A stretch of DNA of 64,000 bases from a virus. Shown piece by piece: positions 8,752 to 20,702 of the stretch; positions within the stretch are counted from its first letter, which is position 1; each line of letters begins with the position of its first letter. The notes beneath the pieces were generated by a model. The model saw only the letters and a list, made by a program, of their open reading frames with translations, had not been told where the DNA came from and searched no databases. The position numbers and the translations under genes are program-made. The stretch covers positions 32,001 to 96,000 of IMG/VR virus record IMGVR_UViG_3300017917_003565; one strand, given 5' to 3'.

Positions 8752-9839
8752 TAGGCTTTCCTTTCGAACTCACGCATGAATTCCACCAGTGCTTGTACGC
8801 CTGCCACAGGCATGGCGTTGTAGATGCAGGCACGCATACCGCCGGCCAGTTTGTGCCCACGCAGAGCTATCAGCCCTGCTTCGGTTGATTGGGTCAAAAA
8901 CTTTTCATTCAATCCTTCATCTTTGAGATAAAACGTCACATTGGCCCGAGAACGGCACTCCGGACTGACCCGATTTTCATACAGCGAACTGGAATCAATG
9001 TAGTCGTACAACAAAGATGACTTGATTTTGCCAAGCCGTTCCATTTCTGCCACTCCGCCTTGGCGTTTGAGCCATTTCAACACCAGTCCAGAAACATAGA
9101 TTGCAAAAGTAGGTGGAGTGTTTACCCAAGGCACAGTATTTTTGGCCCAGTCCCAAATGGTCGGAGTTATGGGCATGGCGTGTCCCAACAGATCCCGGCG
9201 AACTATGACCACAGTGACTCCGGCTGGCCCTATGTTTTTTTGTGCTGCAGCAAACAACACTCCGCACTTACTGACGTCCATGTGCCTTGATAGGATATTG
9301 CTAGAGACATCAGCCACTAATGGCACTCCCGCGGTATCAGGAAAATCTTCAAACTCCACTCCGCCTACAGTTTCGTTGGAACAGATATGCACATAAGCTG
9401 CATCTTGAGAGAGATTCCATTGATCGCGATCTGGAATGCTGGTAAACTGACCATTGGATGGACAAGCCACGATGTTTGCCTGCCCATATTTTTGTGCTTC
9501 TTGGGCCGACATCTCAGACCAGATACCAGTGACAACAAAATCAGCTGTGCGATTCTTGGACAATGGCAAGAGATTCATGGGTATGGCTGCATTTTGTCCA
9601 ATACCTCCTCCCTGCAACATCAATATTTCATAGTCATCGGGAATCGCCATCAACTCACGTAGGTCAGCCAATGTTTCATAATAGACTTCTAAGAACTCCT
9701 GGCTACGATGGTTGAGTTCCATCATGCTGGTGCCTACACCGTTCCAGTTCAACATTTCGTCGGCGACCTGTTGTAGGACTTCTTCAGGTAGAGCCGACGG
9801 TCCGGGAGTGAAGTTGTAAACCCGATGATCAAACTTCAT
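8751..9839 (-). CDS. serC: Phosphoserine aminotransferase
   Basis: YNF.PGP..LP, HRS, LQGGG, CSNET..G, DVSS, AQKNIGPAG (PLP Lys), NTPPTF, GH...GG.RA..YNA. Confidence 0.95.
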   Translation of the reverse strand: MKFDHRVYNFTPGPSALPEEVLQQVADEMLNWNGVGTSMMELNHRSQEFLEVYYETLADLRELMAIPDDYEILMLQGGGIGQNAAIPMNLLPLSKNRTADFVVTGIWSEMSAQEAQKYGQANIVACPSNGQFTSIPDRDQWNLSQDAAYVHICSNETVGGVEFEDFPDTAGVPLVADVSSNILSRHMDVSKCGVLFAAAQKNIGPAGVTVVIVRRDLLGHAMPITPTIWDWAKNTVPWVNTPPTFAIYVSGLVLKWLKRQGGVAEMERLGKIKSSLLYDYIDSSSLYENRVSPECRSRANVTFYLKDEGLNEKFLTQSTEAGLIALRGHKLAGGMRACIYNAMPVAGVQALVEFMREFERKA

Positions 9840-15572: not shown

Positions 15573-16106
15573 TCACAGTGTCTCACCGCCCACAGCACGA
15601 TTACATGCACACTTCTCACCGGTCTGCAGGGCATCCAATATACGAAGAGTTTCATCGGAACTGCGACCAACGTTCAAGTTGTTGACTGTAACGTGCTGGA
15701 TAACACCTTCTGGATCCACAATGAATGTTGCACGGAGTGCAGCGCCTGCTGGTGAGTAGAACACACCCAGTTGATCAATCAAGCTCAACTCACCACGTTG
15801 GGTGTCAGCGAACTGGATGTGGCGGATCTTCTTGAGATCTTCATGTGCGGATTGCCATGCCAACTTACAGAACTCATTGTCTGTTGACCCTGTGAGCAGA
15901 ACGGCGTCGCGGTCCGCAAAATCCTGGAATAACTTGTCGTAGGCCACGATCTCTGTGGGGCATACGAATGTAAAGTCCTTGGGGTAGTACACAATGACTT
16001 TCCACTTGCCAGCGAACGATTCGTCGGTGATGGTAAAGAAATCGTCTTTGCCTGGATTCACGCCGGTCACGGCAAACTTGGTGATTTTATCTCCTACTGT
16101 TTTCAT
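15573..16106 (-). CDS. ahpC: Peroxiredoxin AhpC
   Basis: YPKDFTFVCPTEI, RATFIVDP.G.I, C-terminal CAC. Confidence 0.95.
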   Translation of the reverse strand: MKTVGDKITKFAVTGVNPGKDDFFTITDESFAGKWKVIVYYPKDFTFVCPTEIVAYDKLFQDFADRDAVLLTGSTDNEFCKLAWQSAHEDLKKIRHIQFADTQRGELSLIDQLGVFYSPAGAALRATFIVDPEGVIQHVTVNNLNVGRSSDETLRILDALQTGEKCACNRAVGGETL

Positions 16107-16161: not shown

Positions 16162-16250
16162 ATTATATATCCTAAAAAAACCTATTGTCAACAGATTTTC
16201 ATAGGTTTTTTCTATTGTATTTTTTAATGACTGATATTAGGAAAATCTAT
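16162..16250 (-). promoter_or_regulatory. ahpC promoter with OxyR-like boxes
   Basis: TTGACA-18-TATAAT; ATAG-N7-CTAT at 16201-16215 and ATTA-N7-CTAT at 16236-16250. Confidence 0.6.
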
Positions 16251-16263
16251 AAGTCTCAAGAGA

Positions 16264-17706
16264 TCAAAACTTGGGTCGAGGATTAGGTCGGTAGAGATCC
16301 ATCTTGCCTTCGACCAGTTCGGACAAGATATTCATAACTTTGAAACTGATGGCAGTGTGAGAAGTGATGCCCTGTTGATGCATCTTGCCCAACACATATT
16401 GATGCCAAGCTGGACCATCGGGGTGATGATTTAAGTTGTTGGGGATCTTGAGTATTTCTGGATTGATTTTGTCTGCATGGAACATAACCGAACTCAAATC
16501 ATCGGCTTCGCGTCCATCAAATGTGATGAATTCATCCAGCTCGGTCCCTACATTGATGTGCATGATATCTCGTGCCAGCTTGGCATCCAGTAAATATTCC
16601 CATCCGATGTCACGCCAGTGCAATCTGCGCATGTCTTCAGACGTGTCTTCGTCCATGAGAGGATGATAAAATTTTACCGGCCGCTGATTCAGAGCAAATC
16701 GATTCCTTGCTATATGGTGTTTGTAATCCAAAGGAACTCTGGGTCTTTCTAGACTGATTTCCGGTCTCCACTGCTCGGTAACATGCTCTCGAGCATAGAT
16801 TGGATAGCGAGTCATTTCTTCAAACTCTGCATAGTCATGTCCGGCCAACAATAGGTCATCCATGAACAAAATCCAATGCAACAGGCTTTCATTGCCTAGG
16901 TGTCCGCCAATGTGTGCTCCGTCTGGATATTTGACCAACATGTCAGCTGTGCTGTAGCACTGAACAAACTCGAACTCATAATGGTTAAACAATCGAAGAT
17001 AATCTTCAAGAGTTACAGTTTCTTCAATGATGCCTCCTACTCTACCGGCCATGTGTTTCCATAAAGCTTCACGTGCTTGTATTTTTTCTGGATTCAAAAA
17101 TGCCTGATTAGGACGCCACAATGGTGAAACTTCTGGTAGGTTTCTAAAATACAACAGAGTGGTCTTTTTTTCGTAGCCCAGTTTCATAATAAAACTCAAG
17201 CATACCAAGCTGTCAATGCCGCCGCTGTAGTGCAGATACACTTTGTCATGCATGGCATATATCTTGTGAAACTCCTCGATACAGCGTTTGTACATCCGCT
17301 CAGTGTATTCGTCTAGGCTGAGATTTTTTTCAATCAAACTGACTTCGATGTGTTCATGTGTGACTAAGAATCTATAGCTGGCTGTGGGTATAACCCAGTC
17401 TCTAAAAACAGTGCCAGTGCGGTAGTCAAACGACACTATCAGTGGAAAGTTGGCTGCGCTGAAATACATGCATCTTTCAATGCGCTCGTTCTTTAACTTG
17501 CGGAAATCGTTGGTGAGATACAGATCATCTCCATCTACTCGAGCAAAAATCTTGTCACCACGTGTCAGATCATAGTTCTGGTACAGACCAGGTGGAACAT
17601 TGGCTGCATTACGATATTTTTGCAGTTTGAGTGCTTGGTGCCGCATGGGTTTTGGCGGCCGACATTTAGGCTTCCATTGGTAGCTTGGATCGATTAAATC
17701 AGACAC
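16264..17706 (-). CDS. PP-loop (adenine nucleotide alpha-hydrolase / asparagine-synthase-like) protein
   Basis: VYLHYSGGIDS PP-loop; G..GNE motif; TAAATA at 17734-17739. Confidence 0.6.
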   Translation of the reverse strand: MSDLIDPSYQWKPKCRPPKPMRHQALKLQKYRNAANVPPGLYQNYDLTRGDKIFARVDGDDLYLTNDFRKLKNERIERCMYFSAANFPLIVSFDYRTGTVFRDWVIPTASYRFLVTHEHIEVSLIEKNLSLDEYTERMYKRCIEEFHKIYAMHDKVYLHYSGGIDSLVCLSFIMKLGYEKKTTLLYFRNLPEVSPLWRPNQAFLNPEKIQAREALWKHMAGRVGGIIEETVTLEDYLRLFNHYEFEFVQCYSTADMLVKYPDGAHIGGHLGNESLLHWILFMDDLLLAGHDYAEFEEMTRYPIYAREHVTEQWRPEISLERPRVPLDYKHHIARNRFALNQRPVKFYHPLMDEDTSEDMRRLHWRDIGWEYLLDAKLARDIMHINVGTELDEFITFDGREADDLSSVMFHADKINPEILKIPNNLNHHPDGPAWHQYVLGKMHQQGITSHTAISFKVMNILSELVEGKMDLYRPNPRPKF

Positions 17707-17764: not shown

Positions 17765-18832
17765 TTACTGTTTGGGTCGGCCAATGTATTCGTGGCTATA
17801 GCACACTCGATGAGCATCACGAGCCGTAGTGGTGCCACCATAGCCGGGCATGGCTCGTACAGTGCCGTCTTTTTTGATGTAACTGGCTGCACGGCTTTTA
17901 CGATTGGTCGAAGTCGGCCGCCATAGAGGTGAATGCTCTCGGTGCTCGCCAAAGCTGGGATGAGCAGTTTTTGAAAAATATCTAAGGCCACGATCCACAT
18001 ATATCTGAGCAATGGCATCACTGAAAGCAGTACCTATTCCCATACCTTGGAACTCAGGTAGCACAACTGTTCTATGACCGCGCCAGTATGAGTGTATGTC
18101 TCTGTTGGTGGAATGTATGGCAGCATGGAAGGCCACAGGTTTGTCGCCAATAAGTCCCACATAGCAATGGACTGATCGACTCATTCTAGTATCTAGATAG
18201 TGATATTTTGAGAAATATCGCCAATAGTCCGGAGTTGTGCTTCGGATGGTGAGTGTGATCTTTGGTCGCCCCAATCGAAGAAGTGACCTCCGATTATCTA
18301 ATACCTGTAGGTCGGTATCATACACCCAGTCTGGATCCAGCCAGTCTATTATGTCTCTGTGACAACTAGCGATATACAACACGCCAGGATTGCGGTCAAA
18401 ATACTTACGAACGCTTAATGCCAAACTTTTGGCAGTATCACGATCAACCACCGATGTAAACTCGTCAATGATCGTGTGTCCTTGATCCAGGCCCATGGCG
18501 ATTTCAAATCTATGAAACTCACCATTGCTCAGAGTACTGGGTTTACGGAACCAAGCAGGTATGGTTCTCAGACCACAAGCAAGTAACAGTTCTTCGCCAC
18601 GTTCAGGTGTACTAAAGTTTTCAATAACTGTTTTATCATAATCAATATCAAAGTCAACATCAAAAGGCTTTGGATTATCTACAGTTCGAAGAATTGTAGT
18701 CTTGCCTGACCCCGAAGTTCCTACGATCAACACAATGCCTTGGGTAGGTAACTTGGGAATGACTATGTTGGGTTCAACATAGTCCTTGATATCATAGCGT
18801 TGTTTGATTTCGTCAAGATAGTTGCCAGGCAT
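17765..18832 (-). CDS. ABC-type ATPase fused to a GNAT acetyltransferase
   Basis: Walker A GTSGSGKT, signature LSNGE, Walker B IIDEFTSVVDR, SCH; C-terminal FSKYHYL and RTVVLPEFQGMGIG acetyl-CoA motif. Confidence 0.85.
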   Translation of the reverse strand: MPGNYLDEIKQRYDIKDYVEPNIVIPKLPTQGIVLIVGTSGSGKTTILRTVDNPKPFDVDFDIDYDKTVIENFSTPERGEELLLACGLRTIPAWFRKPSTLSNGEFHRFEIAMGLDQGHTIIDEFTSVVDRDTAKSLALSVRKYFDRNPGVLYIASCHRDIIDWLDPDWVYDTDLQVLDNRRSLLRLGRPKITLTIRSTTPDYWRYFSKYHYLDTRMSRSVHCYVGLIGDKPVAFHAAIHSTNRDIHSYWRGHRTVVLPEFQGMGIGTAFSDAIAQIYVDRGLRYFSKTAHPSFGEHREHSPLWRPTSTNRKSRAASYIKKDGTVRAMPGYGGTTTARDAHRVCYSHEYIGRPKQ

Positions 18833-19766
18833 CCGAATATTCCATTATGCTGTCAAAGGTGTTTTTGGGAGTGGGCATGATGCTGGGACTATACAACAAA
18901 ATTTCTTGTGCGGACTTGGCGGTGCGCACTGTTTTATCATCTTTCTCTTCCGTGGCTCTGCGTCCAGCAGTGTACTTGATGTCGTAGTAGTTGATTGATA
19001 AATGCCCTCGGTTGGAGGTATAAAACGTGTCGGTGTCTCCGGCCATGCGATTGCAATACATGACCAGGTGTCCGGCTAAATCTGCTGATTTGCAAAAATC
19101 TATGAGCTTGACATGTGCCGTGTCATCAAACGTGGTACCGTACTGTGTGAAACTGTCTCGATATGGTGGATCAAAAAAGTAAAACGCACGGCCTGGAACT
19201 TGATCCACACAACTTTCCCAGGATCCGCTGTGTATAGTCACTCGTTGCAAGAAAGCATGCCATTCCATGACATTGGCTCGATCATACACTGATCCGCGAT
19301 GATTCAACAGGCCCGATGGGGTACAGAAACGACCTTTGGCTTCTTTGGTGCTTTGCCATATGCCGTTGAATGCTGTTTTCATAAGGAAGTATAAACATGC
19401 GCTCTGGCGAGTGGGCGACCAGCTGGCCCAGTCAGTGATGTATTCTTTGCGTATCTGATAGTAGTAGGCCTTGCGGGCGTTGGCATCCATGGGCAGATAG
19501 GTGTTGCAATAGGCATCACATTCTTGTAGGAACACAGCCACATCGTTGCGTATGGCACGATACAGACCCACAATCTCTTCATTGATGTCATTGAGAACAA
19601 AGTTTTGAACCGTGGGATTGTTTTCATATACATGGATCATCATGGCACCGCCGCCAAAGAATGGTTCCACGTAGGTGTCGTATCCGCTGAGAGGTAGCCC
19701 TGGGGCTTCCTGATACTTGGGTATCATTTTGCTCTTGCCGCCGGCCCACATGTACAATGGTTTCAT
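18813..19766 (-). CDS. DNA adenine methyltransferase, Dam/D12 family
   Basis: W.GGK, YVEPFFGGG, LNDIN, FNG, FFDPPY, ..QY. Confidence 0.92.
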   Translation of the reverse strand: MKPLYMWAGGKSKMIPKYQEAPGLPLSGYDTYVEPFFGGGAMMIHVYENNPTVQNFVLNDINEEIVGLYRAIRNDVAVFLQECDAYCNTYLPMDANARKAYYYQIRKEYITDWASWSPTRQSACLYFLMKTAFNGIWQSTKEAKGRFCTPSGLLNHRGSVYDRANVMEWHAFLQRVTIHSGSWESCVDQVPGRAFYFFDPPYRDSFTQYGTTFDDTAHVKLIDFCKSADLAGHLVMYCNRMAGDTDTFYTSNRGHLSINYYDIKYTAGRRATEEKDDKTVRTAKSAQEILLYSPSIMPTPKNTFDSIMEYSDAWQLS

Positions 19767-20647
19767 TAGGTATTTAATCTAGGGTTTACTGTGAGAATAA
19801 AATTGCTTTCATAGGCCTCGGCTATGTCTTTGGTAGAGTAGGCATTGGCCAACATGTCAAGAGCTAGATCCTTGGCTTCTGGCTTGTCCTCTCTACTGAC
19901 TCGCACCCAGGCCTGTGCCAATGGATCACGCTTGTTTTGCAAGATTTCCATGAATTGATCATCGATGCTGTTGAGCTTTTGTTTGACCAGAATATCTGCC
20001 ATGATCTGCTCAGGAGTGAGAGTTTCTTCAAACAGTGACAAGAAATGATTGGTGCGAACCTTGCTGTCAAGATAGGGCTTGATATCATTGAATTTGAGAT
20101 CGTCTAGTTTCAGTGTGGACCTCATGATTTCAAAGATTTGTTCTTGACTGAATCCGTCGGGTGCATAATGCCATTTGACATTTGAGCCATGGATGATTTC
20201 CATGTTGGTACCATGTCTGTGCAACACTTCTCCTTGGGCCGCACCAGCACCGGTGGCAAAGGTCACATATTCGCAATCAGGGTTGATCGCGGTACAAATG
20301 TCATGATTGGTGCCCCAGCGTTCAATAGCATTGCCACCGGTGCCTTGATGCTTGGCTTCAAACACACATTTGAGTCGACGGTTTTTCACTGTTCTATCAC
20401 CATCAAACCACATGCCGCCGTCGGGCACACAGCCTAACGTGATGCCCATGGACACCAGTTCTGGCAATCCAGCACGATCTCTCACGCTTTCGCTGATACG
20501 GTCACTGGTGAGATTCCTATGACCTTGTTCATAATGATATCGTTTTTGGGCCAAGGCAATGGCCTGCGAAACCACTCGGACATCGCCGTCGAGTTTTTTG
20601 GATTCTGCGCTGCCTGCTTCGGTACCTTTTTGTATGCCACCTGCCAT
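19766..20647 (-). CDS. EcoRI-family restriction-endonuclease-like protein
   Basis: PDGG ... EAKHQG ... GNAIER matches the EcoRI catalytic (PD..EAK) and recognition (GNAIER) motifs. Confidence 0.75.
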   Translation of the reverse strand: MAGGIQKGTEAGSAESKKLDGDVRVVSQAIALAQKRYHYEQGHRNLTSDRISESVRDRAGLPELVSMGITLGCVPDGGMWFDGDRTVKNRRLKCVFEAKHQGTGGNAIERWGTNHDICTAINPDCEYVTFATGAGAAQGEVLHRHGTNMEIIHGSNVKWHYAPDGFSQEQIFEIMRSTLKLDDLKFNDIKPYLDSKVRTNHFLSLFEETLTPEQIMADILVKQKLNSIDDQFMEILQNKRDPLAQAWVRVSREDKPEAKDLALDMLANAYSTKDIAEAYESNFILTVNPRLNT

Positions 20648-20673
20648 AAATCACCCTTTATAGTCTTTCTGCT

Positions 20674-20702
20674 AGTTTAACACAGAGTGATTTTTTGGTC
20701 AA
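20674..20702 (-). promoter_or_regulatory. Promoter of the nuclease-methylase operon
   Basis: TTGACC-17-TAAACT. Confidence 0.55.

Follow-up and report, generated by a model that had tools for sequence, protein, structure and literature searches.

The window analysed here is a stretch of 64,000 nucleotides (nt) of viral DNA, bases 32001-96000 of the 112-kb IMG/VR virus record IMGVR_UViG_3300017917_003565 (hereafter G000). The record is estimated to be 33% complete, and the phage genomes of close relatives measure 320-344 kb. On the minus strand of the window lie three co-oriented open reading frames (ORFs), which encode an EcoRI-like nuclease (19766-20647, 293 amino acids, aa), a D12/Dam-family methylase (18813-19766, 317 aa) and a protein combining an ABC-ATPase with a GNAT acyltransferase (17765-18832, 355 aa; hereafter ABC-GNAT). 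The stop codon of the nuclease and the start codon of the methylase share 1 nt in TAATG, and the 3' end of the methylase gene overlaps the start of ABC-GNAT by 20 nt. An earlier note, made from the sequence, had described three overlapping genes under one promoter and had read them as a single restriction system. The overlaps and the common orientation are confirmed by the ORFs and by both junctions. As to the promoter, a sigma-70-like candidate with a TG extension is present upstream of the nuclease (TTGACC-17-TAAACT, 20702-20674, minus strand). It matches only 9 of 12 consensus positions, and sites of this quality are no commoner in the region than in shuffled sequence (9 versus 10.8 +/- 3.7), so that a promoter driving the nuclease from here is plausible but unsupported. 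No match to the region was obtained by megablast among 50,697 phage records.

Searches with the single nuclease sequence against PDB, Pfam (E<=0.01), NCBIfam and PADLOC yielded no match. Its sole family match is phrog_2400, which has no assigned function. A word-indexed search retrieved 107 relatives, nearly all of them unnamed metagenomic proteins, and the family as a whole comprises 324 representative clusters, most of 165-210 aa, for which no Pfam, NCBIfam or PADLOC model exists. The kinship with EcoRI emerges only from the fold and from a profile of the family. Thirty-two diverse homologs were aligned, and the residues D76, E97, K99, Q101 and G105-N-A-I-E-R110 are invariant among them. The best PDB match of the profile from these 32 homologs is EcoRI (E 0.008), at both motif blocks: PDGG...EAKHQG of the nuclease aligns with EcoRI residues 90-116 and GNAIER with residues 139-145, in agreement with the motifs picked out in the earlier note. 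In the EcoRI register, D76/E97/K99 form the PD-(D/E)XK triad D91, E111 and K113, residues common to both proteins which established structural work has shown to be catalytic in EcoRI. Q101 and GNAIER 105-110 fall on the AATT-reading elements Q115 and G140-R145, among which Q115, G140, N141, A142, E144 and R145 read the inner AATT. EcoRI residues 117-137, the 'inner arm', have no counterpart. HQG runs directly into TGGNAIER, and the missing segment between the two motifs is thereby confirmed.

The structural model agrees with the profile. The AlphaFold2 (AF2) model of the nuclease has a pLDDT of 87.8, and the top five Foldseek matches are all EcoRI with a probability of 1.0. Comparison with VIA superimposes model residues 18-182 on EcoRI over 144 aa (Z 10.2-10.5, root-mean-square deviation 3.3, 25% identity) and gives Z 7.0 for MunI. 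In the ESM Atlas the nearest named families are MunI (features 0.92) and an EcoRI-domain cluster (TM 0.73), and the nearest clusters are 100% viral. By fold and conserved residues the nuclease truly belongs with the EcoRI/MunI-fold enzymes. Profile, model and structure matches place the EcoRI/MunI-like PD-(D/E)XK core in residues 1-182 (20102-20647, minus strand). The extra helical C-terminus, also claimed before, is seen in the AF2 model at residues ~185-293; by the secondary structure of the model, the extension occupies residues 183-293 and, with the stop codon, positions 19766-20101. It is restricted to a small 'long' subclade and is missing from the short forms of 165-210 aa. The helical domain also occurs as a stand-alone protein of 86 aa (P0360) and at the end (residues 335-418) of an otherwise unrelated protein of 418 aa without Pfam match (P0361), which suggests a mobile module.

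The nuclease family is essentially viral. A motif-based scan of one genome from each of 185,579 prokaryote species gave 1 hit, on a 2.9-kb contig of a metagenome-assembled genome, and among the 50,697 phage records the gene is found only in isolates of Synechococcus phage S-RIM2.

The second gene fits the D12/Dam type proposed for it, with scores above the cut-offs of both PF02086 (4.7e-29, 102.3 bits, cut-off 22) and TIGR00571 (9e-43, 146.8 bits, cut-off 114.85). Its DPPY catalytic motif reads FDPPYRD. DpnM is the nearest solved structure (E 4.5e-16), followed by EcoDam (1e-9), and the protein reaches 51 bits against the E. coli Dam equivalog NF008152, for which the cut-off is 441. Judged by these matches it is a bona fide member of the D12/Dam family of N6-adenine DNA methyltransferases, distant from the solved GATC enzymes. 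GATC as its target was considered on account of the Dam class and judged less likely, GATC not being avoided in its own genome (ratio of observed to expected occurrences, O/E, 1.08).

Nuclease and methylase are a conserved pair. The survey of the linkage covered 80 IMG/VR loci that hold a homolog of the nuclease and, for the long subclade, 17 metagenome loci. A same-strand D12 methylase homolog lies directly downstream or one gene away in ~60 of the 80 IMG/VR loci, and the methylase is present in all 16 long-subclade loci that have downstream sequence. Three carrier genomes have a completeness of 88% or more, and each of them contains the methylase. In one locus both are joined in a single ORF of 472 aa (L020:1881-3296, P0367), in which the methionine of the methylase is kept at the junction. 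S-RIM2 carries a gene of ~350 aa with weak DUF6551 similarity between nuclease and methylase (L082:4614-5669, SWTG_00031), and ~15 IMG/VR loci show a similar gap of ~1.3 kb. Loci without a nearby methylase were considered as disproof of the pairing and rejected as such: in G001 (190 kb), the only complete genome with the two genes non-adjacent, the methylase lies 18 kb away, and the other unpaired loci are fragments. The G001 methylase is not a pseudogene either, as the reported stops fall outside an intact ORF of 284 aa.

The conserved EcoRI-type reading residues predict an AATT core, and palindromic 4-mers were therefore counted. In the 112 kb of the phage's own genome, AATT occurs 143 times versus 388 expected (O/E 0.37, z -15.8). 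This is the lowest O/E of the 16 palindromic 4-mers, and the depletion extends along the whole genome. Close relatives with an ABC-GNAT 67-86% identical and no nuclease nearby (49 loci) have a pooled AATT O/E of 0.94, and the nuclease-free relatives G008, G009 and G010 (100-kb samples) range from 0.88 to 0.99. Even within the orthologous ABC-GNAT gene AATT occurs once here, not at all in the close relative L296, and 3.9 times on average in 32 non-carrier relatives. The median AATT O/E is 0.40 in 54 carrier loci versus 0.90 in 77 non-carrier loci (Mann-Whitney p = 2.8e-19). Three cyanophage-like carriers, G002, G004 and G005 (112, 74 and 90 kb), contain 0 AATT versus 340, 233 and 282 expected. 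The same relation holds for two further phages: S-RIM2, a carrier, has an AATT O/E of 0.34 versus 0.97 in the non-carrier Syn9, while both are depleted in CCGG, GGCC and AGCT. A Syn9 methylase at the syntenic position was considered as an orphan ortholog and rejected, its sequence being unrelated. AATT depletion is thus tied to nuclease carriage. Other 4-mers are avoided in related jumbo phages, namely ACGT in G008 (loci L187-L191, O/E 0.02) and CTAG and CGCG in G007 (loci L182-L186, O/E 0.0 and 0.06); these near-total avoidances suggest other lineage-specific restriction pressures.

A second survey, which started from the methylase, sorted 80 loci by neighbour. With an EcoRI-like nuclease (20 of 80) the pooled AATT O/E is 0.46. 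With neither partner (39 of 80, mostly more distant methylases) AATT is not depleted (0.78). In the remaining 21 loci, which are AATT-depleted (0.34), an unrelated protein of ~290 aa takes the place of the nuclease and abuts the methylase (e.g. L225:6089-6997, L241:6124-6999, L250:6132-7004, L252:6120-7004 and L223:8067-8972; alignment A4). Its motifs, KGKGxGxGE...SDG...ExKxNGASLKP...DTQAxxDGYVN, are D...ExK-like. Pfam, PDB, PHROG and profile-profile searches gave no match and the ESM Atlas only weak restriction-enzyme leads, and we regard it as a candidate alternative restriction endonuclease. Depletion with either partner and none without is what one would predict if an AATT-specific methylase clade served alternative nucleases.

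The flanking bases refine the picture. Carriers of the short form show the same depletion in each of the ten NAATTN contexts (O/E 0.30-0.38). In the window's own genome YAATTR is nearly gone while GAATTC is spared: CAATTG occurs once versus 60 expected, CAATTA/TAATTG twice versus 73 and TAATTA once versus 22, whereas GAATTC is nearly normal (24 versus 31, O/E 0.77) and AAATTC/GAATTT reaches O/E 0.61. GAATTC sites had been reported to occur freely (at 8778, 10396 and 12581), from which a specificity other than GAATTC was proposed. Both statements hold, since it is AATT, and YAATTR above all, that has been purged. Beyond AATT effects, several 6-bp palindromes are scarce in G000, namely TTTAAA (6 versus 25.5 expected), GTGCAC (4 versus 18.7), AGCGCT (0 versus 10.4), AAGCTT (2 versus 13.2) and GTTAAC (5 versus 15.4).

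Taken together, fold, linkage and AATT avoidance support the part of the earlier note that predicted a phage-borne restriction system in which an EcoRI-fold nuclease is joined by a Dam-class methylase. We consider it probable that the two genes form a Type IIP restriction-modification (R-M) pair with a predicted AATT core. The minimal EcoRI/MunI-family nuclease would most likely bind as a homodimer and cut unmethylated DNA at AATT-core sites, here with an apparent preference for YAATTR, GAATTC being under little pressure. An adenine within these sites would most likely be methylated by the translationally coupled Dam-class enzyme. Phage DNA, whether incoming or replicating, would be protected in this way, and DNA of the host or of a co-infecting phage cut. 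The shedding of most AATT sites from the phage genome may serve as a second safeguard. Cleavage and its exact site are inferred, as are the base that is methylated and the role, which may be the degradation of host DNA or the exclusion of competing phages.

As to this role, the same enzymes may mainly constitute a selfish or superinfection-exclusion cassette aimed at rival phages, instead of breaking down the DNA of the host to obtain nucleotides. We regard this as a serious alternative, though less likely than not. Chlorovirus R-M systems, e.g. R.CviAII/M.CviAII, are frequent cutters which degrade host DNA, and a nuclease that cuts often, at 4-bp sites, would suit the bulk breakdown of host DNA. 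The patchy occurrence among close relatives speaks for an exclusion cassette, as do the isospecific methylase loci with two unrelated nuclease partners and the fact that AATT avoidance would also shield a phage from the same nuclease of a competitor. Nothing found separates the two roles.

Several observations weigh against the R-M pair as proposed. The nuclease reaches no Pfam (PF02963 EcoRI, PF11407 MunI) or NCBIfam threshold, and for family member P0274 the Pfam EcoRI score is 19.2 bits, just under the cut-off of 22 bits; the nuclease is therefore a remote relative and not a member of the curated EcoRI/MunI families. Characterised members of the Dam class recognise mostly GATC. The YAATTR bias is also seen in the loci with the unrelated ~290-aa partner; it may thus reflect the methylase subclade, with weaker protection of YAATTR, and could be due to a preference of the methylase rather than of the nuclease. 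Two carriers with an adjacent methylase, G006 (0.79) and G007 (0.90), are barely AATT-depleted, so nuclease carriage is not always accompanied by avoidance. Moreover, some AATT-depleted genomes are also entirely without CCGG, and host-driven purging of 4-mers evidently does happen in these phages: in the cyanophage-like G002, G004 and G005 (loci L173-L176 and L202-L213) CCGG is 0, and the O/E of AGCT and of GGCC lies at 0.11-0.22. The last two points also favour a different explanation, in which the AATT depletion has another cause, such as host AATT restriction or mutational bias, and the EcoRI-like protein serves in homing or nicking, in recombination or repair, or in an addiction module that stabilises the methylase gene. 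The pair is indeed patchy and found at varied genome positions, like mobile or selfish cassettes. We hold this explanation to be unlikely, because the depletion follows nuclease carriage inside two separate phage clades with otherwise common 4-mer biases, and because the depleted word is exactly what the invariant EcoRI/MunI residues read. Furthermore, there are essentially no bacterial homologs as a source, and the catalytic triad is invariant.

If the R-M pair is accepted, one may speculate further that virus-exclusive minimal AATT cutters are used offensively by many aquatic phages, cyanophages as well as ~340-kb jumbo phages, with graded self-protection. We put this forward tentatively and would not expect it to hold in full. 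Protection would be by methylation alone in G006 and G007, by methylation and purging in this phage, S-RIM2 and G001, and possibly by purging alone, a 'restriction without modification', in G002, G004 and G005. These three genomes contain the nuclease, and the assembled part, 41-63% of each, yielded neither a D12 nor an N6_N4 methylase.

The third gene was correctly recognised as an ABC ATPase fused to a GNAT. Motifs, PF00583 (24.7 bits, cut-off 20.7) and the AF2 model place the ABC-ATPase domain in residues ~25-190 and the GNAT acyltransferase in residues ~195-355 of the protein encoded at 17765-18832 (minus strand). Across 20 homologs there is no variation in GTSGSGKT, LSNGE, IIDEF and CH (Walker A, signature, Walker B and H-loop), nor in the GNAT acyl-CoA motif (Q/RxxGxG), which reads QGMGIG. 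The protein matches phrog_11143 (8e-82), and its AF2 model (pLDDT 84.9) shows ABC nucleotide-binding domains in the N-terminal half (Foldseek, probability 1.0). There are more than 5,900 homolog clusters, the top 120 being 79-87% identical, and the gene is a conserved core gene of this jumbo-phage clade (67-87% identity). The fusion is not new. The original description of the ABC-ATPase/GNAT family is said to be that of Iyer, Zhang, Burroughs and Aravind in 2013. This combination of a GNAT with an ABC ATPase has already been predicted to place an uncharacterised acyl modification on a DNA base, Tenacibaculum phage pT24 being the example named (PMC7824862). A tblastn alignment with the pT24 homolog covers 98% of the query at 35.6% identity (E 1e-49); the architecture is the same as in that family (Iyer et al. 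2021), and nothing differs in kind.

The synteny check did not uphold the proposed three-gene unit. The trio occurs in 0 of 159 IMG/VR loci and in 1 of 17 metagenome loci, namely L296, a 3.7-kb contig of a very close relative with the same gene order, as expected from common descent. That all three genes are one system, in which the nuclease restricts and both methylation and acylation protect phage DNA, is highly improbable and largely refuted: the overlapping, co-oriented genes, the same order in L296, the predicted base acylation (PMC7824862) and the position of ABC-GNAT among genes of replication and nucleotide metabolism in distant phages speak for it, but 0 of 79 ABC-GNAT loci have a nuclease or methylase and 0 of 80 nuclease loci an ABC-GNAT, the complete genomes G008 and G010 and the 93% complete G009 have ABC-GNAT at 81-86% identity and no nuclease, G006 and G007 have nuclease and methylase and no ABC-GNAT, and L297-L299 carry the pair in the same neighbourhood with no ABC-GNAT within 5 kb. 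Dissociation in both directions indicates that ABC-GNAT is evolutionarily independent of the R-M pair, which it adjoins only in this lineage. Acylation as a second protective mark is possible, and nothing found links the predicted acylation to the nuclease.

A shared neighbour of ABC-GNAT was sought in 27 distant loci, and none was common to more than 6 of them. The neighbours in distant phages include genes for DNA polymerase B, DnaB, a dUTPase-like protein, DUF1599, UvdE and N6_N4 methylase. This gene context is compatible with the predicted DNA acylation and proves nothing. In the Mu-like Burkholderia phage phiE255 (L085, gp29-gp30) the homolog follows the tail-fibre genes at the late-gene end, beside a formyltransferase-family gene. 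Mu carries mom at the corresponding place.

Among known systems, EcoRI, MunI and the AATT cutter MluCI are related, and in EcoRI A142 forms a wedge within AATT and star activity is seen at N/AATTN (PMC4081073). M.Tsp509I yields A-m6A-TT, m6A being N6-methyladenine (PMC3287169). Like EcoRI (GAATTC), MunI (CAATTG) and MluCI/Tsp509I (AATT), the present nuclease has an alpha-class PD-(D/E)XK fold with matching catalytic residues, and the AATT-reading Q115 and G140-N-A-I-E-R145 of EcoRI are sequence-identical in it. As in the EcoRI/MunI/MluCI kind, its partner is an N6-adenine methylase, and the predicted AATT core agrees with the genome avoidance. Unlike EcoRI, its core has only ~175 aa, lacks the equivalent of residues 117-137 and is nearly all viral in occurrence, the partner is of the D12/Dam class and not of the M.EcoRI type, and in the long subclade a helical domain is appended at the C-terminus. 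At the outer base pair, unlike in EcoRI and MunI, there is apparently no constraint in the short forms and a YAATTR bias here. The methylase resembles Dam, DpnM and T4 Dam in its PF02086 and TIGR00571 matches and its DPPY motif; it differs in being distant from them and in that GATC is unavoided, linkage and avoidance pointing to AATT. In general terms the pair is also like chlorovirus R-M: a viral frequent cutter with a cognate methylase, a proposed offensive use and methylated viral DNA. Unlike the chloroviruses, the carriers are tailed bacteriophages (among them cyanomyovirus-like and ~340-kb jumbo phages), another nuclease family is involved and the viral genomes purge the site.

What is new is a virus-specific variant of the EcoRI/MunI/MluCI Type II systems; the ABC-GNAT family was already known. 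If our interpretation is true, the large unannotated family phrog_2400 can be recognised as phage restriction enzymes whose site is predicted. For T4-like cyanophages and freshwater jumbo phages without the cytosine modification of T4, there would be a concrete, testable mechanism by which they discriminate their own DNA from that of the host and degrade the latter, and the pair would be a clear case of genome-wide site avoidance resulting from a virus's own weapon. Enzymology could gain an AATT-family endonuclease of very small size (~175 aa) and possibly also a new specificity with a YAATTR bias. S-RIM2, as a cultured carrier of the pair, makes a test feasible. The neighbouring ABC-ATPase/GNAT should not be annotated as part of the R-M system.

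Downstream of ABC-GNAT, after a gap of 58 nt, follows a co-oriented gene for a PP-loop ATPase-like protein of 480 aa (16264-17706, minus strand) with an SGGIDS motif (HYSGGIDS). It is possibly on the same transcript as the upstream genes. The family is rare and viral, with 23 homolog clusters, every one 'hypothetical'. Its profile matches TilS and other PP-loop enzymes in the PDB at the SGGxDS motif only (E 0.02), and the protein could be another nucleic-acid-modifying enzyme. The gene is absent from every nuclease locus and every ABC-GNAT locus examined (0 of 79 for the latter). In relatives, an AhpC-like peroxiredoxin gene comes straight after ABC-GNAT, with no PP-loop gene between. In the window this peroxiredoxin gene lies at 15573-16106 (minus strand; 79-88% identity in relatives) and is preceded by a perfect 12/12 sigma-70 consensus, TTGACA-18-TATAAT, at 16162-16191 on the same strand.

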